From: an uncultured Clostridia bacterium
Lineage (GTDB): Bacteria > Bacillota > Clostridia > Oscillospirales > Acutalibacteraceae
Assembly: GCA_937898195.1 (NCBI GenBank)
Contig: CALEJD010000040.1
Span: forward strand, 24,052-88,051
Reading direction: 5' to 3'
DNA: 64,000 nt
A model generated the notes under the pieces. That model searched no databases and had not been told where the DNA came from. It saw only the letters and a program-made list of their open reading frames with translations. How positions within the stretch are numbered: the stretch's first letter is position 1; the number at the start of each line of letters is the position of its first letter. The position numbers and the translations under genes were made by a program. Positions 17,996 to 38,400 of the stretch are shown here, piece by piece.

Positions 17996-20992
17996 TTAAC
18001 CACACCTACTCCACCCACAAGACTTGCATATGTTACATCCACCTTCGTAGACAATCTTTGCTCCACATTCCGGGCATACTTCCCCATTTTCGCAACAATC
18101 AACTAACATATCTGGTGTTTCTTCATAAGGGAGACTCTCATGTTGGTAGTCCGTTTCTACACTATCCGAATCGTCAAATACCCTATTTTGAATTTTATCA
18201 TACAAGTCAAGCATGGCGTTTCCCAGCGCAGACGGACATGACGTTCCCTTGCTTGTATCATGCACCAGTTTTGTTCTATCGCAATATGCCTTGCATGGCT
18301 TGATAGACATGGCTTGGTCAATGATGGACTCAATAGGAATACCCCCACGCAGTGCAAGCGACATTAGCCTACTGATAAAGGTAAGGTTGCGCTCGCATCC
18401 ACCACCAGAGCCACATTCCACAAATGTCTCCATCGGTTCACCAGTAACTTCGTCAAAATCAAGGTGCATATATAACTTTCCGCAACCAGTTCTGATTGTT
18501 CGTTTTGCAGAAATTAAATCGTCACTTACATCCAGAATAATACCCCTTGGAATGTCTGTTGGCGTATCGTCGTTTTCTTTGTTACTGTCAGTAGACAAAA
18601 TGCCAACCCTTCTGCAACCATCCCTAAATACGGTGATGCCTTTCAGTCCAGCCTTCCACGCTTCCATATAAATTTTTTCCACTTCTTCTGGTGTGGTGTC
18701 ATTAGGAAGATTTATGGTCGAACTGATACTTGCGTCAACATACATCTGCCAAATGGATTGCATGTTGATTCTATCCATTGGGTGGATGGTGGAAGACGTG
18801 ACTACATACTTCGGTAATGCTCCGTCATCACTAATCCCCATTACTTCCATCAATTCCTTAATTGCCTTTGGGCGTTCTGTATACACCACATCTTCGCCAT
18901 GGAGTGATTTAGTTGTTCTCTGCCATGACGTAGCGTAGTAAGGCTCGATGCCGCCACTTACCTGTAGCATCGTTGACAATGTGCCAGTTGGTGCAATGGT
19001 AAGCAGTTGGGAGTTGCGAAGACCATCACGCATCACAAGGGCTTTGTATTTATCCATATCTTTCATTACGAAGTTGAAATATGTAGAGTCAAGCACCTTC
19101 TCGTTGAACTTTGGATATTCATCGTTTTCTCTTGCAAGGTCGGATGATACTATAATGGCAGTTTTTGCGATGGTCTGCGCTACCTTCCTACATACCTTTA
19201 GCGATGCTTCACTGCCATATTCAACACCAAGTTTAATTAACATATCGGCAATGCCGAATACGCCAAGCCCAATTTGCCGCCAATCTCTCACCGCTTCTCT
19301 CTGTATTTCAAGGGGATGGAGTGGCAATCCTTCATCAAGCACATCATTAAGTGCCTTAACCGCTATTGCGACAGTGTGCTGAAGTTTTTCAAAATCAATG
19401 TGCGATTCGCTAAATGGATTGTACGGATTTACCACAAATTCAGATAGGTTGATGCTACCAAGTAGACAAGACCCACCTGCTGGCAGTGGTTCCTCTGCAC
19501 AGTTATGCACAATCATGTCGTTTGCTACGAAATTGTGATATTTTTCTACCGCAATATCATATACGTCTTCTGTTTCTGAATTCCAGCGTACTTCTTTAAC
19601 ATACCAATTATTACCAACTTGCTTACCTTGGTTTTTATTTAAACGCTTCGCCTTATTTTTTTTAGGCAGAAACCTTCCGTTTCTGGAGTCCCTATTATAT
19701 TCAATAGTTCTTCCCGTGTTGGTAATTTTAGAATGTTCAGAATGACTTAACGCTTTAAGATTCCCAACTCTATTGTTAAATGTGTCTCCATCAACATGAT
19801 GAACATCTAAACCAGTAATATCTTCGTAGTATCCCAATACAAATCTATGCTCTGGCACATATTTTGTTCCACTTAAACCTACAGAAACATGACTCTCTCC
19901 CTTCATTTGACGATTCAAGCCTTTGATTTTGTCGCCCTTCTTGAGTGATTTTGCTTCTACCCACCCACGATTGGTGGTAAAAATCAAGTGGTCTGGGGTA
20001 CAAGTAATATTCCCCTTACCTGTAATTACAGTTATTGTTTGAGCGTCTTTTCGTGTACACCAAATTTTCTTTGCTCTACCAATAGTTAATTCACCATCAG
20101 AATTCATGCAATACACATCTGGTTGTAATCCTACCAAGTCCTTAATGGGTATATTGCCATCCGTGGTTTGAATTAATGTATTGCCAGATAAGCAGGGATT
20201 TGTACCTGCGTATTCAAATTCATCATCTTCGCTCAACAAATTCCAAGCATTAATCCTATCCCAAAACAGAACTCCCGGTTCACCCATATCCCAATTATTA
20301 TACGCAAGTTTTTTAAATAACCTTCTTGCATTAACCGTTTTCGTAATGGTTTGGTTGACTTCGGGGCGTTCGTAAGACAGGGTGATATCTTCGTTTCGCT
20401 CAACCGCTTCCATGAACGCATCTGTAACACGCACAGAAATGTTAGCCGTTGTTACCTTATCCAAATCGGATTTAATATCAATGAACTCTTCGATGTCGGG
20501 ATGGTCGCAAGCAATAGAAATCATAAGAGCACCCCTACGCCCATTTTGTCCAATTAGGCTTGTGGTCATTCCGTATAAATCCATAAAGGACACCGCACCA
20601 GAAGTCTCTTTTGCTGTGTTGTTGACCCTTGCTCCCTTCGGTGCAAGATTTGAAATATCAATCCCAACACCGCCACCATAAGAAAAAGTTCTTGCCAGTT
20701 TACTTGCTGTATCATAAATAGATTCAATACTATCTTGTGGGGGCGTCAATACATAGCAGTTACTGTAGGTAACTTTTATTCCTTCTTTATATAGCCCACG
20801 ATTAGCAAGAATTCTTCCACCAAAAATAAATCTCTTGGCTTCAATTTCTGAACGCACAGATTCATCGCCACCACTTACTCTGTCAAGCCATTCATCAAAT
20901 GACTCGTTATTGTGTCTATACTTCTTTTCCCAGATGTCAATGCCGATTTCGTTGTCTTTTCCGAGCCATTTTACGACTTTTTCATCAACCAT
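17996..20992 (-). CDS. nrdJ: adenosylcobalamin-dependent (class II) ribonucleotide reductase, intein-containing
   Basis: Motifs FIFGGRILAN, YSNCYV, catalytic GTNPC...AEEPLP split by the intein, and a C-terminal CPECG...CNICKSCGWSRCG Zn ribbon. Confidence 0.85.
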   Translation of the reverse strand: MVDEKVVKWLGKDNEIGIDIWEKKYRHNNESFDEWLDRVSGGDESVRSEIEAKRFIFGGRILANRGLYKEGIKVTYSNCYVLTPPQDSIESIYDTASKLARTFSYGGGVGIDISNLAPKGARVNNTAKETSGAVSFMDLYGMTTSLIGQNGRRGALMISIACDHPDIEEFIDIKSDLDKVTTANISVRVTDAFMEAVERNEDITLSYERPEVNQTITKTVNARRLFKKLAYNNWDMGEPGVLFWDRINAWNLLSEDDEFEYAGTNPCLSGNTLIQTTDGNIPIKDLVGLQPDVYCMNSDGELTIGRAKKIWCTRKDAQTITVITGKGNITCTPDHLIFTTNRGWVEAKSLKKGDKIKGLNRQMKGESHVSVGLSGTKYVPEHRFVLGYYEDITGLDVHHVDGDTFNNRVGNLKALSHSEHSKITNTGRTIEYNRDSRNGRFLPKKNKAKRLNKNQGKQVGNNWYVKEVRWNSETEDVYDIAVEKYHNFVANDMIVHNCAEEPLPAGGSCLLGSINLSEFVVNPYNPFSESHIDFEKLQHTVAIAVKALNDVLDEGLPLHPLEIQREAVRDWRQIGLGVFGIADMLIKLGVEYGSEASLKVCRKVAQTIAKTAIIVSSDLARENDEYPKFNEKVLDSTYFNFVMKDMDKYKALVMRDGLRNSQLLTIAPTGTLSTMLQVSGGIEPYYATSWQRTTKSLHGEDVVYTERPKAIKELMEVMGISDDGALPKYVVTSSTIHPMDRINMQSIWQMYVDASISSTINLPNDTTPEEVEKIYMEAWKAGLKGITVFRDGCRRVGILSTDSNKENDDTPTDIPRGIILDVSDDLISAKRTIRTGCGKLYMHLDFDEVTGEPMETFVECGSGGGCERNLTFISRLMSLALRGGIPIESIIDQAMSIKPCKAYCDRTKLVHDTSKGTSCPSALGNAMLDLYDKIQNRVFDDSDSVETDYQHESLPYEETPDMLVDCCENGEVCPECGAKIVYEGGCNICKSCGWSRCG
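19502..20194 (-). mobile_element. 231-aa intein with an HNH homing-endonuclease domain
   Basis: Starts with Cys (CLSGNTLIQT) and has a TPDH block B; HNH motif HHVDGDTFNNRVGNLKALSHSEH; ends IVHN followed by Cys +1; removing it restores TNP-CAEEPLPAGGSC. Confidence 0.85.
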
Positions 20993-21214: not shown

Positions 21215-21243
21215 ATTATACCACTTATATATTATTCTGTCAA
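21215..21243 (-). promoter_or_regulatory. consensus sigma-A-type promoter (leftward)
   Basis: TTGACA-17 nt-TATAAT with TGG before the -10. Confidence 0.65.
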
Positions 21244-23777: not shown

Positions 23778-24097
23778 TCATCCCACCTTTCGTAATAATC
23801 ATATTCTTCCGGGTTCCAAAATTTCTCCATCCAATTTTCAATTTCTTCGATGTTCTCCCATCCATTGAGCCATGTGATGTTTATGGCGTTGTGAGTCCCC
23901 TTCTGGTAGAGTTGAGTCTCCGCTTCATATCGTGGTTCATCGAAGTGTTTGTGTATACACTTTTTTACATCAATATAATACTTCTTTCCAACATTGTCAT
24001 CAAATCGCTTCTGGAAAAGCGTTTCTACAAAATCTCCCCAGATAGAGGGTGGTGTAAATTTTTTATATCCAGCGTTGATTAATTTTTCATCATTCAT
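23771..24097 (-). CDS. hypothetical protein
   Basis: Lies within the operon. Confidence 0.6.
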   Translation of the reverse strand: MNDEKLINAGYKKFTPPSIWGDFVETLFQKRFDDNVGKKYYIDVKKCIHKHFDEPRYEAETQLYQKGTHNAINITWLNGWENIEEIENWMEKFWNPEEYDYYERWDEC

Positions 24098-24099
24098 AA

Positions 24100-24291
24100 C
24101 TATTCTCCAATCTTTTGGTTTATCAGATTCTTATAAGCAAGAATCATAGCGTAGCCACCACGCAAGTTTTCTTCTTGAATGATTCTAAATGTCTCTCTGA
24201 TTAATTCGGTCAACGCATCTACTCTTCCTTTAACATATCCATGCTTATATGCTTCAGTTCCTTCATATGAATGTTTTGCTCTATCTGCCAT
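24100..24291 (-). CDS. hypothetical protein
   Basis: Lies within the operon. Confidence 0.55.
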   Translation of the reverse strand: MADRAKHSYEGTEAYKHGYVKGRVDALTELIRETFRIIQEENLRGGYAMILAYKNLINQKIGE

Positions 24292-24820
24292 GTAAATATC
24301 TCCAATCTCTATATTTATATTTTATATCTCTAAACCATGTCTTAATTCTAAACCAAGGCGTTCCATAATAATCAATAATATGCGTCTTCTTGTAGTAACC
24401 GATATCTACGCCATAACCAAACGCCACCTTATATTTGTGTCCACGATATTTCATTTTGCAGATGTAATAGTTGTGCCCACGTCTTTTCTTGACCTTGATA
24501 TCGCAAAGGTCATCGCCAACATAGAACCAATCGTGCCAATATTTCCACTTGACGAATTTTTCACAGCCGAAGTATACTCTACCTTCGTCTCCCTTATGCC
24601 ACGGAAATTCCTTGCAATAAATAGTCATGACATACTTATAGAATCCAATGGTCAAATCTTCGTCACCAATATATGCGAATTGGTTGTTGTTGAGTCTCCC
24701 GCAATACAGTTCTTCGTCTTTGTCAGACCATCCAACCATCTTCTCCATATCTTCAAACATTTCGGTCTGAATCAGTTTGCCATCCTTCCATGCGATGGCT
24801 CCATAGTCAATCATAGCCAT
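24281..24820 (-). CDS. hypothetical protein
   Basis: First gene downstream of the promoter at 24845..24873; SD AAGGAG. Confidence 0.6.
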   Translation of the reverse strand: MAMIDYGAIAWKDGKLIQTEMFEDMEKMVGWSDKDEELYCGRLNNNQFAYIGDEDLTIGFYKYVMTIYCKEFPWHKGDEGRVYFGCEKFVKWKYWHDWFYVGDDLCDIKVKKRRGHNYYICKMKYRGHKYKVAFGYGVDIGYYKKTHIIDYYGTPWFRIKTWFRDIKYKYRDWRYLHGR

Positions 24821-24844
24821 TTCTTTTATCTCCTTTCTTTATAT

Positions 24845-24873
24845 ATTATACCACATATATAAAGAAAAGTCAA
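24845..24873 (-). promoter_or_regulatory. consensus promoter (leftward)
   Basis: TTGACT-17 nt-TATAAT with TGG. Confidence 0.65.
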
Positions 24874-24875
24874 TA

Positions 24876-25061
24876 TTAATTTGACTTACTTCTTAATTCA
24901 TCCAATATTTTCTGCGCAATCCTTCGGTCTATCTCATTGATGTCTTCGCTATTAGCCAATAGTTGCAAGCCGTGCTTTATATTCATCAATTCAGTTATGT
25001 TTGTTTCCATTCGTGCACCACTGATGTACTCACCATCATGGTATATAAACTTGAACTTCAT
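24876..25061 (-). CDS. hypothetical protein
   Basis: 61-aa ORF; weak SD. Confidence 0.45.
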   Translation of the reverse strand: MKFKFIYHDGEYISGARMETNITELMNIKHGLQLLANSEDINEIDRRIAQKILDELRSKSN

Positions 25062-25129
25062 TTAATTACCTATCTATTTCCATCAACTTTCACATCTGAA
25101 ACTGTTTTTTCCTATCATTTTTTCTATAC

Positions 25130-25393
25130 TCATTCTTCCCTCCGTTCTCCGTGGTGGCAGAAGCCTTGTATGTACACTGCCCTGTCCATTTCATCGCAGT
25201 ATACCGACTCCGGCACAAGGGATTCGCTTGCGTTTTTGCAATCCTTACACCTAACCACTTCCCGGAGAGGGCACCAATCTGGTTTTGCGTCACTGTCCTC
25301 TTTTTGTAGTTCTTCGACCATGCAGAATCCACAAACATCGAACTTGCAATAATAGCAAGTCTTCGGCATTGGCATATCAATCAGTATTGCCAT
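25130..25393 (-). CDS. Cys-rich small protein (AILIDMxMPxTC...CPLREV type)
   Basis: ATG 25393 after GGGAG; paralog of 38094..38399; ends FCHHGERREE like the 27186 gene. Confidence 0.6.
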   Translation of the reverse strand: MAILIDMPMPKTCYYCKFDVCGFCMVEELQKEDSDAKPDWCPLREVVRCKDCKNASESLVPESVYCDEMDRAVYIQGFCHHGERREE

Positions 25394-25721
25394 CACTTAC
25401 TCCCCTCGTCCTTGCTCCCACAATCTTGCATCCACACTGTGGGCAATACTTACTTCCTGCCCAGTTCATCGGATTGCTACCTATGCCTTTGTCTGCAATA
25501 CCTATATGTGTTGCAACGTATCCGCACTCGGAACATCGCCACGCAGGAATGTTCCAGTCCATGCCGTTCGGGTCATACTCCCACTCGCCTTTAGGTCTAT
25601 CGCCATAATCTCCGTAAGCAAAATATTCAATGATATCCGTTATTTTTGGCTCAAATATCTTTGGCATCATTGGATGTCTTCTTAATTCCACTAATTCGCC
25701 TATCATTCCTTCATACGTCAT
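25377..25721 (-). CDS. Zn-ribbon protein (PKGEW...CSECG...CPQCG)
   Basis: Member of the tandem Zn-ribbon family. Confidence 0.65.
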   Translation of the reverse strand: MTYEGMIGELVELRRHPMMPKIFEPKITDIIEYFAYGDYGDRPKGEWEYDPNGMDWNIPAWRCSECGYVATHIGIADKGIGSNPMNWAGSKYCPQCGCKIVGARTRGVSDGNTD

Positions 25722-25971
25722 GTTTTTTACCTCTCATATCAGCACCGCAGTTGGGGCAGAAATTTGCCGTGTACGAACTCGTTATTTTTTTGCAATTCGT
25801 ACAGCGGTAATCTTCATTAACAGTAATTTGCCACTCCCCCTTTGGTGGCTGTTCTCGCACGTCTGCCTTGAATTGTGCTTCTACTCCAGTTTTCCAACCT
25901 TTTATAAATGCTTCAGAATAATATCCTTCGTTATCAATATTTAATCGTAGTTTTTTCACTTTATTTTTCAC
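25711..25971 (-). CDS. Zn-ribbon protein ending CPNCGADMRGK
   Basis: PKGEW motif; CTNC...CPNCG ribbon. Confidence 0.65.
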   Translation of the reverse strand: MKNKVKKLRLNIDNEGYYSEAFIKGWKTGVEAQFKADVREQPPKGEWQITVNEDYRCTNCKKITSSYTANFCPNCGADMRGKKHDV

Positions 25972-26260
25972 CTCTCATATATGCTCCGCAGTTGGGGCAG
26001 TATTTGAATTCTGATAACTCCATGCTCCCACACTCGGAACAGGTGTATGTTGTTATTAGGCATAACTCATCTGCATATCCTTTGTTCCACTCCCCTTGCG
26101 GTCTATTTATGTCAATTGTTGGTGCTTCATCAATTTCCATCATTAATGACACAACTATATCTGTTTCAAAAGGGTACTCTTTTTCCTCTCTTCCACAAGG
26201 GTCGGAAGGCATCCACTCAAGCACCTTGCGTTTCAATGCAGTTGCATCAATCAATCTCAT
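25961..26260 (-). CDS. Zn-ribbon protein ending CPNCGAYMRGEK
   Basis: PQGEW motif; CSECG...CPNCG ribbon. Confidence 0.65.
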   Translation of the reverse strand: MRLIDATALKRKVLEWMPSDPCGREEKEYPFETDIVVSLMMEIDEAPTIDINRPQGEWNKGYADELCLITTYTCSECGSMELSEFKYCPNCGAYMRGEK

Positions 26261-26754
26261 TCATCCTCACCGCCTCTCATCTTCGCTCCGCACTCTGTAC
26301 ACCAATTCCTTGCATCCGCAAAGTCAAAAACCTCTCCGCACTTTGAACATCTGACAGCATCAACATCGTCTGGGTATGTTGCCGTTTCCCATTCAATGTG
26401 TGTATTTGGGAAATCGACATCATTAGTCCTGTAAACTTTCTTTACAGGAATCCACACACCACTCTCTCGCTCGTTCTTGCCTTTTGTGTAGCCATACAAA
26501 AGCATTTCCTTGCAATCTTCTTTTGCTCTCTGTGTTAGTTCTCCACCATCTGCTTCTGCATAGTATTCCCACACATCATCTGCTTCTGCTGATAGCCATT
26601 CTCTAAACTTGACATACATATCCTCTCGCTCTGACGGGATAGACATAAGGATTTTTACGGCACTCTTTGTGTCAACGTAACCATAAGCACCGTCTTGATT
26701 TGCTTCTTTGACTATCGCTTCTATCGCCGCCTGTCTGCTGATTAAGTCACTCAT
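26257..26754 (-). CDS. Zn-ribbon protein (LISRQAAIEAI N-terminus) ending CTECGAKMRGGEDE
   Basis: Family motifs; ATGA overlap with the neighbour. Confidence 0.65.
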   Translation of the reverse strand: MSDLISRQAAIEAIVKEANQDGAYGYVDTKSAVKILMSIPSEREDMYVKFREWLSAEADDVWEYYAEADGGELTQRAKEDCKEMLLYGYTKGKNERESGVWIPVKKVYRTNDVDFPNTHIEWETATYPDDVDAVRCSKCGEVFDFADARNWCTECGAKMRGGEDE

Positions 26755-26997
26755 TTACTCACCTCTCATCTTCGCTCCGCAGTTCGGGCAGTAGTTGTCC
26801 ACAATCCTAATGGCATGACAAACTGAACATTCTCCATGAACGTGTCCTTCCACGGTGTTTGGAATGAGTTCTTCGTGTAGCCACTCGCCACTCTCTCGCT
26901 CTGCATCCAATGCTTGTATTGCCATGTCAATAGCTTCGTCATATTCATCATCACACATTAGCTCACGAAGCAAGTCTTTTGCTTTTTCCCTTGTCAT
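26755..26997 (-). CDS. Zn-ribbon protein ending CPNCGAKMRGE
   Basis: N-terminus MTREKAK..AIDMAIQAL is paralogous to the 27186 gene; SGEW motif. Confidence 0.65.
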   Translation of the reverse strand: MTREKAKDLLRELMCDDEYDEAIDMAIQALDAERESGEWLHEELIPNTVEGHVHGECSVCHAIRIVDNYCPNCGAKMRGE

Positions 26998-27000
26998 TAT

Positions 27001-27219
27001 TTATCCTTTCAATATGTCCTTCTCTGCTATCCCCTCTACGTGTTGTTTGTTGCTTTGACCATCTTCAACAAAAAAGCAATCTTTAATGATTAAACCGTAG
27101 GTTATTCCGTGGTCTTTATCAATGCAGATGTGCTCTATCTCTGCCTTTACTAATACACTCTCTCCGACTTCAAACTTTGTTGTAATCACTCTTCTTTTCT
27201 TTCCGCCCTTGAACACCAT
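27001..27219 (-). CDS. hypothetical protein (start uncertain; GTG 27189 would remove the overlap)
   Basis: ORF within the operon. Confidence 0.5.
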   Translation of the reverse strand: MVFKGGKKRRVITTKFEVGESVLVKAEIEHICIDKDHGITYGLIIKDCFFVEDGQSNKQHVEGIAEKDILKG

Positions 27220-27443
27220 TCAATAGGATTTGCACTATGTTCGCTATAACCAAGTCTGACTTTCGTATAAGAAACTGCTTGGTAGCAATAATCTTGATGT
27301 ATACACTCATTACAGTATATTGGCTCTGCCGATAGTGCTTCTATTGCCATATCTATGGCTGTATCCATGCTCGGAAAAATATTTGCTTCTTTTAATTTAA
27401 TCTTTGCGTACAACATTTCTTTTATTGCTTCTTCCCTTGTCAT
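27186..27443 (-). CDS. Cys-rich small protein (MTREEAIK..AIDMAIEAL) ending CSRAERKEE
   Basis: Paralogous N-terminus to 26755..26997. Confidence 0.6.
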   Translation of the reverse strand: MTREEAIKEMLYAKIKLKEANIFPSMDTAIDMAIEALSAEPIYCNECIHQDYCYQAVSYTKVRLGYSEHSANPIEWCSRAERKEE

Positions 27444-27604
27444 TCTGAATCACCTTCCTCAAACCATATCTCTACGAATTGATTTGCCCATTCTGATAGT
27501 TCTTGTTCCATTTCTTCTTCCGTATAGTCGTCGGGAAACTCAAAATCTTCTTCGTATGTTGCATCTGGGAAACCAAAACTACACTTCCCCGTCCTTTTAA
27601 TCAT
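27440..27604 (-). CDS. 54-aa acidic protein (below the ORF-track size cut-off)
   Basis: ATGA overlaps at both ends; SD GGTGA 6 nt upstream. Confidence 0.55.
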   Translation of the reverse strand: MIKRTGKCSFGFPDATYEEDFEFPDDYTEEEMEQELSEWANQFVEIWFEEGDSE

Positions 27605-27987
27605 TCCGTATCACCGCCCATCTTCTGTATCAGTTCTGTCACTACCGCTTCGTGCATATCATTTGCGCTGTTGTCAATTTGTGGATATGTCACACACAAT
27701 TCTTCCCATGTTTCAGCGAACAACCCCCACGGCGATTCAAACTCAATAATCTTGGTTACATCAGCATCCCAATACCCATATTCAAACGTCGCCTTGAAAG
27801 CCATTGTTTCAAACCACCGATTAACACCTATGGTTTCCATTCTGCCATTAGGTGATTCGTATGCTCCAACAGTTGACACGACAACCTTTTTCTCGCCACA
27901 TTCAAGCAACGTATTTCGTCTAAAACGGCATCTATGCCCACCGATAAAGTGCCCTACCCATCCTCGTTCTGTTCTCTTTACGCTCAT
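27601..27987 (-). CDS. hypothetical protein (GWVGHFIGGHRCRFRRNTLL motif)
   Basis: SD GGTGA; lies within the operon. Confidence 0.6.
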   Translation of the reverse strand: MSVKRTERGWVGHFIGGHRCRFRRNTLLECGEKKVVVSTVGAYESPNGRMETIGVNRWFETMAFKATFEYGYWDADVTKIIEFESPWGLFAETWEELCVTYPQIDNSANDMHEAVVTELIQKMGGDTE

Positions 27988-28002
27988 TCCGTATCACCGC
28001 CC

Positions 28003-28233
28003 TCATCGTATGTCCCAATGTAAATACTCATATTCTTCTTCAATCTCTTTTTGCCAATCTGGTATACTTTCATTCCGACTGATACAGTCTGTGGTCGTTG
28101 CGGATTCTGCATCACCCTCTTTTGCGCACTCACCGCCAAAAAATTCATAGTTCCCTTTCGGCTTTACATATTCGCTCTTCTCTCCAGCCAGACACCTCGT
28201 TTTAGAAAAGTTTTTATGAACTGTCTGACTCAT
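28003..28233 (-). CDS. hypothetical protein
   Basis: Start overlaps the upstream MRGEK tail, which acts as its SD. Confidence 0.55.
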   Translation of the reverse strand: MSQTVHKNFSKTRCLAGEKSEYVKPKGNYEFFGGECAKEGDAESATTTDCISRNESIPDWQKEIEEEYEYLHWDIR

Positions 28234-28403
28234 TTTTCACCTCTCATATAAGCAACCTTGTCTGTGCGGTTGGTATACACTTTCCTGTCATACCCTTTTG
28301 CACAACGGTATGTCTCGGAGTTACAATTCCCAAGCCTGTCTGCATATTCACATAGCCTATAAAAGTGTCGGCATATACGCTTATTCGGTGTTGTTATCTT
28401 CAT
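28230..28403 (-). CDS. small Cys-rich protein ending YMRGEK
   Basis: ATG 28403 lies 5 nt after GAGGTGA (the track starts at GTG 28412). Confidence 0.5.
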   Translation of the reverse strand: MKITTPNKRICRHFYRLCEYADRLGNCNSETYRCAKGYDRKVYTNRTDKVAYMRGEK

Positions 28404-28992
28404 TGGTTTCACCTCTCATATCAGCACCACACTCTGGGCAGAAGTTCGCTTCGCAAGTGATTATAACACCACACTCCGAGCAAGAACATTTTGGTGAAAA
28501 ATAATAGCCAGTTATGCTTGAATCACTTGCAATGTGTTCATGTATCCACACCCCCTTCTTCCGCTCTGGCTCTACTGGTGGACATTCATTCAACGCTTGG
28601 TTTATTCCAGTCAGTGTCATGCCCTTTTCTTTTGATGTTTCGTTGTATGTAACCCAATAGGCATTATCTTCTATGATTCTCCACAAATCATGTTTACTAA
28701 TAGCGTCCTCACATACTGGCTTTGGTTTGACTGGTGGGAGAATGTTGAGAATCTCTTGTACTCCTTTGCCTGTAAAGTACGGCACCTCCCCATTAGTGCA
28801 ATCATGTAGTGCTATTTCTTCTATCGCCTGTTGCCGACTGATACAGTCCTCGCTATTCTCCCACTTCCCCCTTGGTCTACCTTCATAAGCGCGAATCAAA
28901 TCGTCAATATCAGCCCTTTTCCACTCGTCAGATTCTTTGTGCTTCCAAAGAATCCTGCTCTCATCAACCTCTGTTCCTATCTGTATAATCAT
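28381..28992 (-). CDS. Zn-ribbon protein (ISRQQAIEEI) ending CPECGADMRGE
   Basis: First gene after the promoter at 29019..29047; family motifs RPRGKW, KKGVWI and CSCSECG...CPECG. Confidence 0.65.
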   Translation of the reverse strand: MIIQIGTEVDESRILWKHKESDEWKRADIDDLIRAYEGRPRGKWENSEDCISRQQAIEEIALHDCTNGEVPYFTGKGVQEILNILPPVKPKPVCEDAISKHDLWRIIEDNAYWVTYNETSKEKGMTLTGINQALNECPPVEPERKKGVWIHEHIASDSSITGYYFSPKCSCSECGVIITCEANFCPECGADMRGETNEDNNTE

Positions 28993-29018
28993 TTTGTATG
29001 CCTCCTATCACTATATAT

Positions 29019-29047
29019 ATTATATCACATATATTTATCATTGTCAA
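29019..29047 (-). promoter_or_regulatory. consensus promoter (leftward)
   Basis: TTGACA-17 nt-TATAAT. Confidence 0.7.
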
Positions 29048-29171
29048 TAAAAATATGGCTATAACGCCATATTTTATCTTTGCCACCACGCACAATTAAG
29101 TCTTTGCGGCACCCTATACCACCAGTAATCTTTTTCGCTCATACGCTTTAATACGTCTTCAATTGTAATTT

Positions 29172-29423
29172 TTACCAATTTGTAAAGTCCTTTCCCTTTT
29201 CAGTAAAAACATATAGTGGATATTCACCTTTTACACAATCCCAAAAGCATTGTTTTGCTTCTTCAATATCTTTTAAGTTAAATGTCTGTTCTGCTCTAAT
29301 TGTTTCACCACTTTCAAAGATGGTAACTTCAACACTCATTTCTACTGTGTTTTCTGGAATGGAGATAATAATATCGTCACATTCACCTTCATACATTTTT
29401 CGGTCTGTCATTTTGTTAGTCAT
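29172..29423 (-). CDS. hypothetical protein
   Basis: Lies within the operon. Confidence 0.55.
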   Translation of the reverse strand: MTNKMTDRKMYEGECDDIIISIPENTVEMSVEVTIFESGETIRAEQTFNLKDIEEAKQCFWDCVKGEYPLYVFTEKGKDFTNW

Positions 29424-29619
29424 GTTTAATTTCGTCCTCCTTGTTAAGAAACATCGTATATACGGGCACTCTATCGCAACACACTAATCTTCTATCTTCA
29501 CACGCACTTACATATTTTGCAAATTTCTGTTGCGATTTTTCGTTGTTGAAGGCGGTTACTATTGGTTCTGTTTGACCTATTTGTTCGTATATTATGGTAT
29601 ATACATATTGACTAATCAT
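29416..29619 (-). CDS. hypothetical protein
   Basis: Lies within the operon. Confidence 0.55.
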   Translation of the reverse strand: MISQYVYTIIYEQIGQTEPIVTAFNNEKSQQKFAKYVSACEDRRLVCCDRVPVYTMFLNKEDEIKHD

Positions 29620-30603
29620 TTATCTCCACCTTTCGCTCTGAATTTCTGGTATAAAACTTAATATGTGTTTAATAACGTCTACTGTCCATCCATCGCCAAT
29701 AACATCGCAAGCCTGTCCGTATGAAAGATTATCACAATAGCCAGTGGGTAGAGTCTGCGCCATTTCCATTTCTCTTCTCGTTAAAAATCTGCACCAATCC
29801 TTATACGGCATCATGCCACTATTAGGACACCTATCTTGTTTGCGACTAATACAACCGACCTTATCAGCGTTGATTAAATTAGCACATTTGGTCATTGTGT
29901 TAATGGGCGATTCGCCATTACTCCACATACGAATTCGACTTGGCGTTTTATTTGGTATCGCTTCGTTGCACCTATTTATATCCGTATCTATATAGTCTTG
30001 ATAAGATATATGTTTGTCTTTTGGGGATGTTACATTTGGTATATTAGTCCAATAATATCTCGCTCTGGTTTGATATGATACTAACTTACTATCAATCATA
30101 ATGCCATTTACGTCAAGGTAATTATCTAATTCTTCCTTACTGTCTTTTCTCATTCGGACGTTTTCAAGCAAGAAATATTTGGGTTGTATTTCTTTAAGTA
30201 ATCTTATATACTCATAGAACAATACGCTTTTATCACCTTTCAGCCCATCAATTGTATTTCCGTTACCGCTTGTTACTCTTAATGTACTAAAATTCTGGCA
30301 TGGACTACCACCTATAATTATATCTGGCTTTTCTTCCAAGATTTTGGTAGGTTCTTCTCCGTAACATTTATTATGATGAAAATCCCAATCGGAATATAAT
30401 GCGTGTGTCTCTTCGTCCCAATGAAGTTTAGTCACATCACCAACCTGTATGGTGTTAGGGTAGTGTAGTTGAGTCGTTTCAATAGCAATTTTCTTAATTT
30501 CAGACGAGATATACTTGTTTTTAACGCCATCAAAAGTTATACCAAGACGCTCAAACGCAATTTGTCCACAACTAATGCCATCAAATAAACTTAATACTAT
30601 CAT
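29620..30603 (-). CDS. DNA (cytosine-5)-methyltransferase
   Basis: Motif I LSLFDGISCG, motif IV GGSPCQNFS, motif VI LLENV, and C-terminal GDGWTVDV. Confidence 0.85.
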   Translation of the reverse strand: MIVLSLFDGISCGQIAFERLGITFDGVKNKYISSEIKKIAIETTQLHYPNTIQVGDVTKLHWDEETHALYSDWDFHHNKCYGEEPTKILEEKPDIIIGGSPCQNFSTLRVTSGNGNTIDGLKGDKSVLFYEYIRLLKEIQPKYFLLENVRMRKDSKEELDNYLDVNGIMIDSKLVSYQTRARYYWTNIPNVTSPKDKHISYQDYIDTDINRCNEAIPNKTPSRIRMWSNGESPINTMTKCANLINADKVGCISRKQDRCPNSGMMPYKDWCRFLTRREMEMAQTLPTGYCDNLSYGQACDVIGDGWTVDVIKHILSFIPEIQSERWR

Positions 30604-30622
30604 AATGCGCTCCTAATAAATG

Positions 30623-32278
30623 TTATACTATCTTTATTTCAAATTCTTCAATAACTATTTGCTTCGTCTTCTTACCACGAAATTCATTAACGCTTGGTTT
30701 CCCAATTATATCTATATTAATTATACCACCTGTACCAACCTTTAGCAAGTCTTTTTTTTCTTTTGAACAAAAGAACATGATAAACTCAATATCCCCATAT
30801 AGAAATTTAATTGTAGTTTTACCAGCACCAAGTTCTTTAATATCTTCGCCGCTAATGGTTATATTAGAAAAATATACTGTTGGCTCCGGGATACCGTGAC
30901 CCCACAACATTTTACCAGCGTCATTCATATCGAATATCTCTGGTGGCATAAACACGTTATCTGTAGCATACATAACGTGAATGGTTGGCTCTTCTAAATT
31001 CAGTTGTCTACAAAATGTTGACAACTCATCTGTGTTTTCTGCTGACCAACCGATTCCACAAGATTGTTCATGCCCAGCACAAAATGCTACGCCTTCGCAT
31101 CCTAACAACTGACTTCTAATTGGTATTGGGCTACGAACAGAGCCAGATAGGAATTTATCTCCATGTACAACAATGCATGGGCATTGGTATTTATCGCTTA
31201 ACTTTGTAGCAACTAATCCTGTGTATGGTGTATTAGGTGACTTAAAAATCTTAATCCTGTCGCCAATGTATCCGTTAGATAACACTTCCTCGTACAACTT
31301 GTTTGTTTCATTTCGTTGCTTGGCGTGTTGCTCCTTGATTTTATTAATAAAATCATTCACACTATTGCTTAATACATCACCAAGCGCAAGCATATCAAAC
31401 AATTGTGTTTTTAGTGATTTGTTATCGCTCCTACACACAGCGTTGATTTTAGGTATGACGTTCCATGCCAATGTGGTTGGTGTTATATCAGCGTTAGATA
31501 TAAACTCGTGACACATAGCACGAAGGGTTGGGTTGGCGATATGCTCCAATCCCCACTTCACAATCATTCGATTTTCGTTGTAGCGCATATCCATAACATC
31601 GCCAATGGTTGCCAGAGCAACAAGGTCAAGGCACGATTGATGAAGCTTGCTATTATGCTTCTTGCAAAATGCGGTGATTAACTTATGCGTCACGCCAGCA
31701 CCACACAGTTGCTTGTTCTTTACACCACGGCTCTCTTGGTTGTTAATGATGGTGGCATATATGTTATCTTCGTTTGCTTCATGGTGGTCTGTAACTAATA
31801 TCGGGATGTCCATCACATTATACAAATACGCACACGCATCTATGTCGTTTGTGCCAGCATCTGGTAGCCATATAAGCCCCACTTCTTGGTCATTGTCATC
31901 GCTTATGTAGCAATTTATCTGCTCCATCATTTCTTTACTTAATCCGTGTTGCTTACCACCATGAAAAAGTGCCTCGATATTTGTTGAACTTACACCTTCT
32001 GATAACAGAAATTTGTATGCAATAGTAGTAGCACAATAGCCGTCGCAGTCGCTATCACAAATTAGGAGAATCATTTTGTCATGAATGTTGGCTTCGTAAA
32101 TTGCTCCTTCTAATACTTCAACACCCTTTTCTATATTGTCGTAGTTTTCATAAGGCTCTACAAAACTTGCAGGTGGGTTAAGATAATTCTCTACATCTAC
32201 TACACCACATCTACGCAGATATTCGTTTATGGTTGGTGTTTCGTTTTTCTGAAATAAAGATTCAATTTTCATTATCAA
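30623..32278 (-). CDS. DHH-family RecJ-like single-strand exonuclease
   Basis: Motifs CDSDCDGYCA, LPDAGTND and VTDHHEA. Confidence 0.7.
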   Translation of the reverse strand: MIMKIESLFQKNETPTINEYLRRCGVVDVENYLNPPASFVEPYENYDNIEKGVEVLEGAIYEANIHDKMILLICDSDCDGYCATTIAYKFLLSEGVSSTNIEALFHGGKQHGLSKEMMEQINCYISDDNDQEVGLIWLPDAGTNDIDACAYLYNVMDIPILVTDHHEANEDNIYATIINNQESRGVKNKQLCGAGVTHKLITAFCKKHNSKLHQSCLDLVALATIGDVMDMRYNENRMIVKWGLEHIANPTLRAMCHEFISNADITPTTLAWNVIPKINAVCRSDNKSLKTQLFDMLALGDVLSNSVNDFINKIKEQHAKQRNETNKLYEEVLSNGYIGDRIKIFKSPNTPYTGLVATKLSDKYQCPCIVVHGDKFLSGSVRSPIPIRSQLLGCEGVAFCAGHEQSCGIGWSAENTDELSTFCRQLNLEEPTIHVMYATDNVFMPPEIFDMNDAGKMLWGHGIPEPTVYFSNITISGEDIKELGAGKTTIKFLYGDIEFIMFFCSKEKKDLLKVGTGGIINIDIIGKPSVNEFRGKKTKQIVIEEFEIKIV

Positions 32279-35200
32279 TCATCCTTTATAATTGCATAAC
32301 ATTGGACTATCTGCTCATACTCACCAGTTTTCATCCATTGCTTCTTGCCATTAGCGTCTTCGCCAATAAGTTTGACCTTCTCTTTGGTTCTAAATGCCAC
32401 TTTTAACAAATCGTCTTGTGCACACGGTAACTTCTTGTACCATTTCGCATCACATTTGTATTCAAATGATTGGTTAGAAGCAAGATGATATAACGATAAC
32501 CAAACCCTATCCCATTTATCCTTATGTGCTGATTGCACTACATATTCGTCCATGGCAACACTCACATTCCCAACATCAACGTAACCAAGATGTTTGATTT
32601 GGTTACGAATCAACATTGGAACATCCTCCCCATGCAAAGGAGTAATGTCTATAATGTGCTGGATTAAACCCTTGTTATTTATTTTGCTAAATGTTTTTTC
32701 TGTTTCCTTGTCCGAATACTCACGCACAACAGGAATAAGCCAAGGTTCGTTCTCTATTTTTTCTTTCTTGATGGTCTTACATTTGTGAAATTTATCATAC
32801 CACCCACGCATATCCTTTAGTGTTCCAACGGTTCCAAATTTATCGAAAAACCCAATGTCAATTAGAATATCCATAGACTTGGAATTGATTCTATTATTAT
32901 CCACTTTGATATCTTCACACATTTCAAGCACATCAATGAACGTCTGTGGGTTTCTTTCTGCTACCTGTAGCATAATATCGGCGGCTACAGACTGCATGGA
33001 CTTAATTGAGCCAAGCCCCTTATATATAGTGTTGGTTAACTTGTCGCACACATAAACATTCTTTGCATATCCAAGTTTTGGTGCTTTAATAGTAAACCCT
33101 TTAGACTTGGCGAACTTTGTGCCCCTTGCGATATCATCATCAGTTCTTGCGTTATTAAGAAACGCTGTAATAAATTCAAGTGGATAATAGTATCTTAACA
33201 TAGCACATGTATATCCAATCATTGAATATCCAGTTGAATGATTGTAACCAAACATATAATTGCTACTGTCTTCAATGATTTGGAGGAATGCCTTCGCTTC
33301 CTTTTCTGCTACGTCTCTTGGCTTGTCTGATTTTTCACAATACCCTTCGAGAATTTGTGGTAACGCCGCTTGCAGTCTGTCCATTTGCTTGCGCCCAATG
33401 GCTCTTCTTACATTGTCAGCATCAGAACCAGACAGCCCACATATATCTTGTAGGAACTTAATTACGTCTTCTTGGAATACAAGAAATCCATTATTATCCT
33501 TTAATAATTCATCAATCTGTTCAGAAGGATTATGATTGGTTTCGTGTGCAAACAATCTATCCCTATAAGATTCTCCACTTGGTCTAATAGCGGCGTTGAC
33601 TAATGACATATGATTAAGCATGTGTGGTTCAAAATCTTTTAGACACTTAAACGCATAATCAGATTCAAATTGGAATAACCCTACTGGTGATGTAATCATA
33701 TCTTTCCATACGTTTTCATCATTCCAATTTATTTCATGAGATTTAGGATATGGTATTCCAGCGAGCCTACATGTATCACGAATAATCTGCACGTTTTGTA
33801 ATCCTAAAATATCATACTTAACCAAATTAATTTCATGAATTTCCTCCATATTGATTGGCAGTACAACTTGCCCATCGGAGTTAATAAACCCACCATAATT
33901 ATCAATTAAATTAATTGGCGATGCGATGATGCCAGCAGGATGTTGGGATTGTGAGATTACACATCCGAGCATACCATCATAATAGTAAAATACTTCTGGA
34001 TATTTTTTTCTTGTTGCTTCTTCGTCTTCTTCAAATTCTCTCTTAATCTGGTCTGCTAATTTGAGTGAATATTCAGACTCCTTTCCACTCTTTTCTTCTT
34101 TGTGTCTCAATGCACGACATATATCATCAATAGTCCCTTTTGATTGAATCGTATCGCTCGCAAGTATATATGCTGTATTCTCTATGCCAAAACGGTCAAT
34201 AATGTATTGATACACCAATGACCTTTGGTCTGGAGACACATCAATATCAATATCACCAATTTCTTTCCTGTGCTCGTTACAAAACCTTGAGAACATAGTA
34301 TGCCATACTACAGGGTCAACATCAGTAATGTCTGACAAATATGCGGTTTCGCTACCCCCAACAGACCCACGACAAAATCCAATAGGAATGTCATTTTCCC
34401 AACACCAAGAAATCATTTCAGACATGAATAGCATAAAGCCACTCATGCCAACTTTATGGAATACGCTTAATTCTTCTTTGATTTTATCACCATATTCTTT
34501 TGCTTTAGATTTATCAATAGTGCCTGTGTTGACCTTTTGCTTGTATTTATCACGCAACCTCTCAAGTAAAACCTTCTCGTCTTCTTCTCCGTAAAGGATT
34601 GGATACTTAAACGATGTGTCTAACTCAAAATCAACAATGCTGTCTGCCATAATGTTAGTGTTTTCAATCGCTTGAAGATATATTTCTTCATGAGTCCCTT
34701 GCTCCTTAAACGCCTCACAGAGTTCATCATATGATTTGTATGTTAAATCAAAAATATCCTCGTCGCCAAACTCAATTTCTTTTGACCATTGTAACATAGT
34801 ACGACACTCTGCCTTGTACTGATTGAGACTATGTGTGTCCGTACCTGCAATAAGGGGTATGTTGAATTGTTCAGATAGAGTAGTAAGGTATCTGTTATAT
34901 ACGATTTGCTCTGGATGGTTATGTGGTTGAATTTCTAAATAATCATAGTGTTTAATTAAAGACCAAAAGTTATCAAAGTTGTCATCTTTAGATTCGTGCA
35001 TGTAACACAAGGTATTAAGCGGACTCGCTAAACATGCAGAAATTTTAATAACATTATCACTAATGTTCATAAATTCATTAAAAGATAATCTTGGTCTATA
35101 ATAAAAGTGGTCTGGTTGCGATGCGATATAGCATAGCCTGTTTATTTCCTTTACTCCTTCATAATTTTTAGCCAACAAAACAGTATGATAATTATCTCTT

Positions 35201-35436
35201 ACCTTTGGTTCAAGTTGTTCTGTCAGATAACATTCTACACCATGGATGTACTTGATTCCGTTGGCATCACAATACATTTTTTTTTCGACCCAATTATAAA
35301 CATTACCATGCTCCGTAAAAGCGATGGCTGTTTGACCAAGTTCTTTTGCTTTGTTTACATAGTCTTTATAATTAGTGCAACTGTCAAGCAAAGATTGTTC
35401 AGTATGAAGATGATAAACTACATAATTCTTTTCCAT
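32275..35436 (-). CDS. dnaE: DNA polymerase III alpha subunit (DnaE-type, N-terminal PHP domain)
   Basis: 1053 aa; PHP motifs YHLHTEQSLLDS and FTEHGNVYNW; polymerase core GIDIDVS and HPAGII. Confidence 0.85.
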   Translation of the reverse strand: MEKNYVVYHLHTEQSLLDSCTNYKDYVNKAKELGQTAIAFTEHGNVYNWVEKKMYCDANGIKYIHGVECYLTEQLEPKVRDNYHTVLLAKNYEGVKEINRLCYIASQPDHFYYRPRLSFNEFMNISDNVIKISACLASPLNTLCYMHESKDDNFDNFWSLIKHYDYLEIQPHNHPEQIVYNRYLTTLSEQFNIPLIAGTDTHSLNQYKAECRTMLQWSKEIEFGDEDIFDLTYKSYDELCEAFKEQGTHEEIYLQAIENTNIMADSIVDFELDTSFKYPILYGEEDEKVLLERLRDKYKQKVNTGTIDKSKAKEYGDKIKEELSVFHKVGMSGFMLFMSEMISWCWENDIPIGFCRGSVGGSETAYLSDITDVDPVVWHTMFSRFCNEHRKEIGDIDIDVSPDQRSLVYQYIIDRFGIENTAYILASDTIQSKGTIDDICRALRHKEEKSGKESEYSLKLADQIKREFEEDEEATRKKYPEVFYYYDGMLGCVISQSQHPAGIIASPINLIDNYGGFINSDGQVVLPINMEEIHEINLVKYDILGLQNVQIIRDTCRLAGIPYPKSHEINWNDENVWKDMITSPVGLFQFESDYAFKCLKDFEPHMLNHMSLVNAAIRPSGESYRDRLFAHETNHNPSEQIDELLKDNNGFLVFQEDVIKFLQDICGLSGSDADNVRRAIGRKQMDRLQAALPQILEGYCEKSDKPRDVAEKEAKAFLQIIEDSSNYMFGYNHSTGYSMIGYTCAMLRYYYPLEFITAFLNNARTDDDIARGTKFAKSKGFTIKAPKLGYAKNVYVCDKLTNTIYKGLGSIKSMQSVAADIMLQVAERNPQTFIDVLEMCEDIKVDNNRINSKSMDILIDIGFFDKFGTVGTLKDMRGWYDKFHKCKTIKKEKIENEPWLIPVVREYSDKETEKTFSKINNKGLIQHIIDITPLHGEDVPMLIRNQIKHLGYVDVGNVSVAMDEYVVQSAHKDKWDRVWLSLYHLASNQSFEYKCDAKWYKKLPCAQDDLLKVAFRTKEKVKLIGEDANGKKQWMKTGEYEQIVQCYAIIKDD

Positions 35437-35437
35437 T

Positions 35438-35827
35438 TTACCACCATAAGTATCTATGACATACCTTTAACATATCGTAAACTTCATCCATAATCTCCAC
35501 ATGGTCTGTGCTTATACTACTAAAATTCATGGCATCTTTACATTTGCCAATCATCTTATCAATCATTTCTAATTCTGTATATTCTTCACCAAGATACTCA
35601 CACTTGTGATAGTTTAAGTCAACAATTTCTCCACCAATTTCTTTATACATCATAAGACGCTCATAGATAAGTTGTGCGAATGTTGAATCTAAATCCCATG
35701 TTTCTATATCACAAAACCCATAGATTTTTTCTTGCTCGCACCAACGCTCATGTCGCTCGTCGGTTTCATCATGATAACCAAATATTTTTTCTTTGGGTAT
35801 TATCTCTTCAAGATATTTCCTATTCAT
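35438..35827 (-). CDS. hypothetical protein
   Basis: Lies within the operon. Confidence 0.6.
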   Translation of the reverse strand: MNRKYLEEIIPKEKIFGYHDETDERHERWCEQEKIYGFCDIETWDLDSTFAQLIYERLMMYKEIGGEIVDLNYHKCEYLGEEYTELEMIDKMIGKCKDAMNFSSISTDHVEIMDEVYDMLKVCHRYLWW

Positions 35828-35853
35828 ATGTATACCGCAACCTCTCTGTTATC

Positions 35854-37502: not shown

Positions 37503-37510
37503 GTTTCAAA

Positions 37511-38399: not shown

Positions 38400-38400
38400 A

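Follow-up and report, generated by a model that had tools for sequence, protein, structure and literature searches.

What do the very small, cysteine-rich genes that crowd the replication region of a tailed phage encode, and how did so many related copies come to lie side by side? The DNA analyzed here (the window) is a 64-kb part of a 106,350-bp contig of such a phage, and the genes in question occupy positions 25130–28992 of its minus strand, with a further copy at 38401–39060. An initial annotation had described them as at least nine adjacent genes of an uncharacterized zinc-ribbon family and had added that such expansion usually marks an arms-race or specificity-determining function. The main array is seated in the early/replication region; within the replication module, it has a DHH/RecJ-like gene on one side and the gene for a RecD-like helicase on the other. 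The reading that we favor, with reasonable confidence, is that the array is a hyperplastic early accessory island whose zinc-ribbon products are modular and probably bind other proteins.

All-against-all BLASTP of 20 small open reading frames (ORFs) from both clusters grouped seven paralogs, all on the minus strand, six of them in 25377–28992 (25377–25721, 25711–25971, 25961–26260, 26257–26754, 26755–26997, and 28381–28992) and one at 38401–39060. Most pairs of members gave E values between 1e-11 and 1e-3, and three pairs that include 38401–39060 were weaker, up to 0.1. An alignment of the seven products (A1) has only eight invariant columns, which belong to G-x-W, CxxC, CxxCG, and the starting Met. 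In the six-frame translation of the window, the composite motif G.W-x(3-45)-C..C-x(4-40)-C..CG has seven occurrences, whereas 200 dinucleotide-preserving shuffles yielded none. The ORFs of all seven are intact, and every ligand cysteine is present. The tandem family is real, but only six genes in 25130–28992 carry the ribbon, and seven in the window, instead of the nine or more first proposed.

The head motifs that the initial annotation had pointed out were found at mapped residues and are shared between genes. ISRQ-type heads occupy residues 3–13 of the 26257 gene product, 49–59 of the 28381 product, and 70–80 of the 38401 product, and an MTRE..AIDMAI.AL head links the 26755 gene to the 27186 gene, whose products align by BLASTP at 47% identity across 40 aa (E = 5.6e-5). 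A second sub-family, proposed to be interleaved with the first, was borne out by the 25130 and 38094 genes, which are 33% identical over 79 aa (E = 1.6e-6, BLASTP). The Cys-rich neighbors of 38401–39060 had been counted with the family as well; those at 37511–38116 and 39053–39229 do contain one to five Cys, yet they show no significant similarity to the family by BLASTP. Also unrelated by BLASTP are the ORFs at 27001, 27440, 27601, and 27984/28003, apart from a DCISR junction motif in 28003–28233. The ORF 27984–28148, which overlaps 28003–28233 in a different frame, is probably spurious. A weak match to the hidden Markov model (HMM) of the ribbon, the 203-aa product of 55251–55862, was set aside as a member; it has an HEVLH motif and a C-terminal CxxC..CxxCG ribbon of its own and, as read by eye, is probably a SprT-like HExxH metalloprotease.

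In the alignments and models, a family member carries one or more short helical head modules, and a P-x-x-G-x-W strand connects these to a C4 zinc ribbon of three strands. The heads have constant ends and arbitrary cores. One type starts with DLISRQAAIDA, continues with 12–50 variable residues, and closes with LPSAQP; others follow the patterns MTREEAI...AxDMAIEAL, RLIDA.., and MIIQIGTEVDES.. The module behind the linker is usually the C4 ribbon and otherwise DUF551 (proteins P0154 and P0161 and a gene in contig L015) or another Cys-rich or helical module, and in contig L078, DUF551 and the ribbon stand within one protein. Fusions among homologs include WDGH (PF25311) and a Lar-like domain, the latter placed N-terminal to the family ribbon in P0169. 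A profile search with the ISRQ head returned only short proteins (91 aa or less) with diverse C termini and no informative enzymatic fusion.

The four ribbon Cys are invariant both in A1 and in a 72-sequence alignment (A5), and the inter-knuckle and pre-knuckle segments are hypervariable. For the 80-aa product of the 26755 gene, AlphaFold2 predicts a helical hairpin followed by a three-stranded ribbon with a mean pLDDT (predicted local distance difference test score) of 83; the helices span residues 3–12 and 17–31 and the strands residues 39–44, 53–57, and 63–65, the first strand starting at the Trp of GxW. The model of the 203-aa product of the 28381 gene resembles helices on a string with a confident ribbon. 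Across the two models, the three-stranded ribbon has a pLDDT of 81–93, and the two CxxC knuckles meet as a C4 site on a small β ribbon, which is predicted to bind zinc. Foldseek searches with both models found no significant neighbor in the PDB (best E 0.8–1.6), and BFVD returned only unnamed or machine-labeled virome “zinc-ribbon” proteins.

The C-terminal xMRGE of these proteins had been described as a nearly invariant protein signature. It is present in five of the seven window members, but in the wider family the tail peptides vary (MRGE, MRKE, MREE, MDGG, and MDGE), most of them being purine-rich with a string resembling a Shine-Dalgarno (SD) site. As codons, M-R-G-E reads ATG-AGA-GGT-GA(A/G), which contains GAGGTGA. 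The string GAGAGGTGA in it, a near-consensus Bacillota SD, lies approximately 2–8 nt ahead of the start of the next gene at six consecutive junctions. Among 128 members from independent loci, 116 have a downstream start preceded by an SD; in 102, this start is no farther than +4 nt from the stop codon, so that the SD necessarily falls within the tail. The decisive test is synonymous codon usage. In M-R-G-E/D tails, Arg is encoded by NGA in 30 of 31 cases, compared with 324 of 704 in gene bodies (p = 3e-9), and Gly by GGT in 22 of 31, compared with 164 of 748 (p = 2e-8), in a test that treats loci as independent. Because synonymous usage is biased in this way, and from the reading of the junctions, xMRGE is largely a nucleotide-level constraint, namely the embedded SD of the gene that follows and in most cases overlaps.

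Genes of the operon that are unrelated to the family behave alike. They end in GGDTE, and the 19-nt junction GGGCGGTGATACGGAATGA (D6), which is 100% identical at 27601–27619 and 27984–28002, encodes GGDTE-stop and carries an SD, the stop overlapping the next ATG. A separate observation concerns the DUF551 proteins P0154 and P0161 and those of contigs L077 (6620–6928) and L078 (7756–8280), which end in ..PLPEPYKGG(D/E)xE, a tail that would spell a AAAGGAGGTGA-like SD and suggests that dual coding of tails is general in these tightly packed operons.

One may ask instead whether xMRGE is a protein-level motif, for example a C-terminal docking or degradation signal, that overlaps the ribosome-binding site only incidentally. 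In A5, M77 never varies and conservation is at least 90% at R78 and G79, and the tail is kept across thousands of homologs; however, A5 was sampled from the top hits of a profile that already contained MRGE. The strong synonymous bias toward NGA-GGT, which spells GAGGTGA, argues against such a motif, as do the mostly purine-rich tail variants that usually still encode an SD-like string, the next start only a few nucleotides away in approximately 80% of members, and the identical SD junction of the unrelated GGDTE genes. We therefore regard a protein motif as an unlikely account of the tail. A protein-level role is nonetheless likely for the tail Met, as the hydrophobic residue after CGAx, and two points weigh against reading the tail as nucleotide-level constraint: the codon test assumes independence of loci, and the R and G may have a role in the protein too.

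To see how the array varies, we compared it with close relatives, that is, contigs carrying the same flanking genes; the conserved 63-aa and 179-aa flanking genes are present in at least 22 contigs. The flanking DNA is 83–98% identical and the flanking backbone proteins are 87–100% identical, and the island between the DHH/RecJ gene and a 179-aa gene is different in every lineage. The number of ribbon genes in the island is six in the window, five in L075, four in L077, at least six in L080 (where the island is incomplete), and one each in L076 and L078/79. Besides ribbon genes, the island holds DUF551 proteins and cargo that differs by lineage, such as the homing endonuclease of L077 and the probable methyltransferase of the window. 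In L078, it comprises a PAPS-reductase-family gene and a pentapeptide-repeat/DUF5758 protein (5986–7143 and 8403–8900), which may be DNA-modification and DNA-mimic cargo, respectively.

Base-level alignment shows where the shared blocks end. Window positions 26010–25831 are approximately 90–93% identical to L012; this block begins at the FCPNCG codons of one gene, runs through its tail, the SD, and the next start, and ends at the last base of the next gene's GEW, and similarity on either side is random. Positions 26292–26087 match L015 and L080; this block starts at CG(A)KM and stops at W58 in the 25961 gene, where the relative runs on into DUF551. Gene tails and DAIS(K/R) mark the ends of further blocks, as do CPLREV in the 25130 gene and, in the 28381 gene, the first GKW. 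For blocks of at least 100 nt, 10 of 14 endpoints lie within 6 nt of junction motifs that cover 22.6% of the island (binomial p = 1.4e-4, with motif windows fixed after inspection and some endpoints shared by related contigs), and the other four lie 8–19 nt from such motifs. The conserved motifs (GxW, CPxCG/tail, xISR, and CPLREV) are the seams of a mosaic in which heads, ribbon cores, and DUF551 are reassorted, and the 28381 and 38401 genes contain orphan GxW junctions that resemble recombination fusions.

Repeated DNA coincides with these seams. A junction repeat of approximately 51 nt (D1) occurs in five copies with 61–80% identity on the minus strand, at 25715–25765, 25956–26006, 26747–26797, 28225–28275, and 28397–28447, and all but the copy at 28225–28275 encode CPxCGAxMRGE together with the SD and the next start. 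GEW repeat elements of 16–21 nt are also found in the array, and the longest repeat in the island is 51 nt. Junction DNA of approximately 15–50 nt could thus serve as a substrate for relaxed homologous or unequal recombination, which, as we propose with moderate confidence, would yield both tandem expansion and chimeras. Against this proposal stand the after-the-fact choice of motif windows and the shared endpoints just mentioned; in addition, breakpoints at motifs could reflect the survival of chimeras joined at domain boundaries, not recombination targeted to the motifs.

The ratio of nonsynonymous to synonymous substitution rates (omega) was calculated on orthologous modules shared with relatives, the paralogs being saturated at approximately 30% identity. 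Shared modules have omega values of 0.12–0.22, and the 25130 gene 0.035, compared with 0.04–0.22 for backbone genes, all from small counts; the values indicate neither decay nor positive selection. Variation thus seems to arise by exchange, with the shared modules under purifying selection. The initial annotation's suggestion of an arms race fits in so far as copy number and content turn over fast between close relatives, as is expected of an accessory, conflict-type locus; the mode of change, however, is cassette exchange at conserved junctions and not an arms race by point mutation.

The genes from 28992 down to 25130 are tightly packed on the minus strand between two σA-type promoters. The extended −10 pattern TTGACW-N14-TGNTATAAT occurs 17 times in the window, compared with 0.17 expected, and 16 of the 17 sites are on the minus strand. 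The site heading the main operon (29019–29047, minus strand) lies immediately ahead of the first array gene and reads TTGACA-N14-TGATATAAT, which is a 12/12 hexamer match with TG. A near-perfect site (11/12; 24845–24873, minus strand) lies past the last array gene, at the downstream end of the island, and its region is 76% identical over 50 nt to the promoter region at 29011–29060 (D3). Because promoters at 29047 and 24873 flank it, the main array appears to be laid out as a single, translationally coupled operon under a host-type promoter, and the type of promoter points to early expression by host RNA polymerase. The promoters bracket the whole island only, not individual genes, and terminator-like hairpins are not in excess (11, compared with 8.8 expected). 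A third site (12/12 with TG; 39328–39356, minus strand) heads the second small-gene operon, which holds the seventh copy. Further consensus promoters were noted, for example, at 21215–21243, 42027–42055, 44276–44304, 52427–52455, 53753–53781, and 61492–61520. Their density is highest (nine sites) in an AT-rich stretch of very small ORFs at 52–62 kb, which may be an immediate-early host-takeover region.

Database searches agree with the earlier statement that the family has no assigned function. Pfam and NCBIfam gave only sub-threshold, generic zinc-ribbon matches to the window members, the best Pfam scores being 24.3 bits for PF08772 (cut-off 24.9), 21.9 for PF12773 (27.3), and 21.2 for PF13248 (27); the homologs P0003 and P0008 do clear Pfam zinc-ribbon thresholds. 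Six of the seven members match phrog_10714 (E = 1.1e-5, 2e-5, 3.3e-4, 4.4e-4, 5.3e-3, and 8.4e-3; no match for the 25377 gene), and all PHROG matches (phrog_10714, phrog_22543, phrog_1494, and phrog_9188) are labeled “unknown function.” Defense models of PADLOC-DB assigned no family to any of the 10 proteins scanned. No window protein matches Lar (PF14354) at E ≤ 1 or DUF551 (PF04448), the W-I-P-V..LP..AW.PLP domain; Ogr_Delta (PF04606) gave E = 0.11 with one member only, and PF01258 (DksA/TraR) was not listed at E ≤ 1. A sequence search of the PDB found generic ribbons only, with E = 1e-4 between the family profile and rubrerythrin, and a literature search on the family motifs, WDGH, and tandem zinc-ribbon phage proteins found nothing relevant. 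The family is, in short, already catalogued (PHROGs and UniProt virome entries) and uncharacterized.

It is nevertheless widespread. A profile of the seven members retrieved at least 5800 proteins in a word-indexed search, and an exhaustive HMMER search returned 32,272 of the 50%-identity clusters when E ≤ 1e-3 was required and 318 at 1e-10, a count inflated by multi-ribbon repeat proteins at the top and blurred at its boundary by generic ribbons. Nearly all homologs are metagenome proteins without a name; among species-representative genomes, most occurrences are in metagenome-assembled genomes (MAGs) of gut Clostridia such as Lachnospiraceae, Oscillospiraceae, Ructibacterium, and Acutalibacteraceae. 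Their neighbors are replication and recombination genes of the “nin-like” type found in phages and prophages, including those for single-stranded DNA-binding protein, DnaB, RecT/ERF, HNH, YopX, DUF551, Lar (in 2 of 148), methylases, and the small terminase subunit. The survey for copy number that the initial annotation had proposed showed that arrays recur: 27 of 73 loci have two to eight copies within a few kilobases, and the window, with seven, is near the top. The largest arrays outside the window are in L052 (Clostridia MAG JAZLCB010000442.1), with eight, and L047 (a Lachnospiraceae MAG), with six ribbon-family genes in approximately 7–10 kb.

What would such proteins do? We tentatively propose that they are zinc-stabilized, protein-binding adaptors or inhibitors acting in host takeover or counter-defense, with specificity residing in the variable heads and ribbon loops. 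This possibility, which we hold with less than even confidence, is raised by the acidity of the proteins, the early-type promoter, dispensability combined with fast turnover, and the variable heads and loops, as well as by the company they keep, which includes Lar-type cargo, a pentapeptide-repeat protein, and a probable methyltransferase. The isoelectric point (pI) is 4.5–5.1 for six of the seven window members; among 192 homologs, the median pI is 4.72 and 89% are below 5.5, and the ribbon module alone has a median pI of 5.0. A more far-reaching variant, that the conserved junction codons (xISR, LPSAxP, GxW, and CPxCG + SD) are the recombination seams of a combinatorial repertoire of binders, maintained by gut Clostridia phages, in which heads and ribbon cores could be quickly recombined into new specificities for host defense or takeover targets, strikes us as speculative and unlikely to hold; if it did, the repertoire would be a recombination-driven analog of a variable-receptor system for counter-defense. 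Several observations weigh against the proteins being binders. There is no partner or informative fusion pointing to a target, Foldseek and HMM searches give generic zinc-ribbon similarity only, and the product of 25711–25971 is basic, with a pI of 9.1. Moreover, acidity counters nucleic acid binding without proving protein binding.

The initial annotation had also suggested nucleic acid–binding or transcription factor–like activity, and paralogs reading different DNA or RNA sites can indeed be imagined, be it as regulators resembling Ogr/Delta or lambda Ea8.5 or as replisome accessories resembling primase zinc domains. The C4 ribbon fold is common among nucleic acid binders, the best weak sequence or fold hits are RNA polymerase subunit P, ribosomal L32/L37e, and TFIIH p44, and the array lies within the replication module. 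The strong acidity of the family, which extends to the ribbon alone, makes this role rather improbable. No helix-turn-helix or other DNA-binding domain is fused to the ribbon, the one Ogr_Delta match is insignificant, and a copy number that ranges from one to at least six among near-identical phages speaks against an essential replisome or transcription role. The same range shows that copy number is dispensable and could be taken to mean that the array is evolutionary debris, that is, decaying duplicates or selfish filler useless to the phage, with the orphan GxW junctions and the head-only ORF 28003–28233 as recombination scars. We consider this very unlikely in view of seven intact ORFs with invariant Cys ligands, an SD for each gene with tight coupling to its neighbors, omega values of shared modules like those of backbone genes, a perfect promoter ahead of the operon, and retention of the family in tens of thousands of clusters. 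Degenerate pseudogenes, which the initial annotation had named as one case that would speak against it, were not what the ORFs and omega values revealed.

Variable cores between constant flanks could, finally, be the work of a dedicated diversifier instead of general recombination. Diversity-generating retroelements are common in gut phages, and a site-specific shufflon is conceivable as well. The cores differ in length and in their whole sequence, not by adenine-specific substitutions, and no long, template-like repeat is present in or near the island; on these grounds the mechanism was rejected, and we give it hardly any credence. In addition, neither inverted-repeat recombination sites nor a recombinase gene was noticed in the island, and no reverse transcriptase was among the ORFs scanned, which were not all those of the window.

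The first gene of the operon, 28381–28992 (minus strand, as are all genes of the two clusters described here), encodes a 203-aa member with three heads: head A (residues 1–44, ending in RPRGKW), an ISRQ head (49–90), and a DAISK head (97–141). A GVW strand, the C4 ribbon, and the tail ADMRGETNEDNNTE follow, and the ribbon region has a pLDDT of 77–93. Head A is seen elsewhere on the ribbon (P0155) or on DUF551 (P0154 and P0161). The next gene, at 28230–28403 (ORF 28230–28412, ATG at 28403), encodes a small basic Cys4 protein of 57 aa that is not a ribbon member and has only its YMRGEK tail in common with the family; its SD, GAGAGGTGA, lies inside the tail of the overlapping 28381 gene. In L012, this ORF is present at 10870–11037, where the gene caller missed it, with its first 56 codons 94.6% identical in amino acids and an omega of 0.19. 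The acidic 76-aa product of 28003–28233 is a head-only relative without a ribbon, and the 15-nt repeat encoding its DCISR motif (D18) is identical to a copy in the 28381 gene. At 27186–27443, an 85-aa protein with an MTREEAIK..AIDMAIEAL head has a Cys-rich C terminus ending in WCSRAERKEE and no two-CxxC ribbon; the ribbon HMM did not hit it, and its BLASTP similarity to the 26755 product is limited to the N terminus.

Downstream of these genes, ribbon members follow one another. The 80-aa product of 26755–26997 has a helical-hairpin head, a GEW strand, the C4 ribbon, and the tail AKMRGE (HMM E = 4e-15), and the 165-aa product of 26257–26754 has a MSDLISRQAAIEAI head, an acidic middle, a GVW strand, the ribbon, and the tail AKMRGGEDE. 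In the 99-aa product of 25961–26260, the head (residues 1–58, ending in RPQGEW) is 91% identical to that of a DUF551 protein in L015, and homology ends at the last base of the W58 codon (26087). The sole basic member, the 86-aa product of 25711–25971, has a head as in P0004 of L012 and a different ribbon core; homology to L012 extends from the FCPNCG codons of the preceding gene to the GEW codons of the 25711 gene. The 114-aa product of 25377–25721 has a long insert between the knuckles and the tail VGARTRGVSDGNTD and is 96% identical to P0014. The last gene of the operon, 25130–25393, belongs to the second sub-family and combines MAILIDMPMP..C..CPLREV with a VRCKDCK..FCHHGERREE module; it is 98.9% identical in amino acids to its counterpart in L012, with the omega of 0.035 given above, and homology to L078 begins at the CPLREV codons. 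The C termini of the 25130 and 27186 products are alike (CxxC .. C .. [FW]C(S/H)x(G/A)ER(R/K)EE), at a BLASTP similarity that is not significant (E = 0.43), and may be another exchangeable module.

In the second cluster, the seventh member (38401–39060; 219 aa) has two ISRQ-type heads, an orphan PKGTW junction, a VHGEW strand, and the ribbon CSECG..CWWCGAKM (HMM E = 1e-16). The second sub-family paralog at 38094–38399 (MAILIDMDMP..CPLREV) has its SD, AAGGTGGTGA, in the tail of the 38401 gene. Upstream of the main array, 29620–30603 on the minus strand encodes a probable C5 DNA methyltransferase with LFDGISCG, GGSPCQ, and ENV motifs, which were read by eye and not scanned. The methyltransferase block (30632–29418) lies between the DHH/RecJ gene and the island. 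L012 and L015 lack it at this site and have N6/N4 and Dam methylases at other positions.

The wider window fits a tailed phage. Its plus strand carries tape-measure, tail, and BspA-like leucine-rich repeat genes at 1–15.6 kb, and its minus strand encodes a ribonucleotide reductase with an intein/HNH, the RecD-like helicase, and a DnaB-like helicase. The labels DNA polymerase III α and DHH/RecJ-like were taken from Pfam hits of relatives, the former also from tblastn matches to annotated dnaE genes, and the C5-methyltransferase, RtcB, and primase labels from translations read by eye without a scan. In tblastn, the polymerase is 41–43% identical to those of a fecal phage and Clostridioides phages, and the latter appear to be the nearest cultured relatives; given this relatedness and the distribution of the ribbon family, the host is probably a member of the gut Clostridia. 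Megablast of 24000–40000 against INPHARED gave no match, that is, no near DNA relative among deposited phages, nor did tblastn with the 25961 product and the homolog P0008. Rfam found nothing in 23.5–40 kb, and there are no tRNAs. Three features elsewhere deserve mention. The large ribonucleotide reductase subunit gene (17996–20992) is split by an intein with an HNH endonuclease domain, and its 767-aa relatives in L078/L079 are intein-less; NUMOD3 homing endonucleases beside the RecD-like and polymerase III genes are variable among relatives; and 61897–62813 has the lowest GC content of the window (0.24), tandem repeats (32 nt × 2.9, 22–23 nt × 2.6–3.0, and 8 nt × 3.6), and a GC skew that falls from −0.39 to −0.04. 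This last region may be a replication origin or a genome end.

In phages and prophages of gut Bacillota, the family is one of the more common small proteins without annotation. It holds two lessons for annotation and the search for motifs: what looks like a protein “signature” can be the in-frame reading of a ribosome-binding site, and conserved peptide motifs can mark recombination seams instead of active sites. If the proteins turn out to bind host factors, the arrays would offer small inhibitors in a rich and naturally diversified supply, as well as a tractable case in which phage accessory regions are shuffled at the level of domains.

Several known systems resemble parts of this picture. 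The PHROG, BFVD, and UniProt entries represent the same family by sequence, and the nearest structural neighbors are gut-virome proteins labeled zinc-ribbon, but these entries do not describe modular heads, tandem arrays, junction shuffling, or an SD-encoding tail. Pfam ribbons (PF13240, PF13248, and PF12773) and rubredoxin-like knuckles share the two CxxC motifs, the second as CPxCGA plus a hydrophobic residue; the Pfam models (also PF17032), whose gathering thresholds the window members do not reach, lack the GxW strand, the helical heads, and the acidity. Lar (PF14354) is likewise a small phage zinc-ribbon protein in the same genomic neighborhood and the fusion partner in P0169, but it differs in Cys spacing and in its N-terminal position.

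Within the exo-xis region that lambda and Stx phages carry, Ea22 has a conserved N terminus and coiled coil followed by swapped, “portable” C-terminal domains, including DUF551 (PMC10834534). The likeness lies in small early accessory proteins of a variable region with a constant head and an exchanged C terminus, DUF551 included (PMC10834534). Ea8.5 is a zinc-finger hybrid, and the exo-xis proteins have no sequence similarity to the family and belong to other phage and host groups; moreover, Ea22 is single-copy with a pro-lysogenic phenotype, whereas the present multi-copy zinc-ribbon arrays are known from sequence alone. The hyperplastic regions of T4-type phages, which are shuffled via promoter/stem-loop (PeSL) cassettes (PMC2839356, PMC4122927), are similar in having small early ORFs between conserved core genes, early promoters that bracket them, and turnover at short conserved sequences; a variable block of small ORFs between conserved core genes is what the close relatives of the window show. 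Exchange of the PeSL type was not found here, since the promoters flank the whole island, the breakpoints fall in coding motifs, and no promoter/stem-loop unit lies between genes. As a general phenomenon, accessory islands in which small early genes form a mosaic are familiar. The present case differs in the multi-copy zinc-ribbon family that it carries and in seams that lie within coding sequence, by which not only whole genes but also domains are exchanged.

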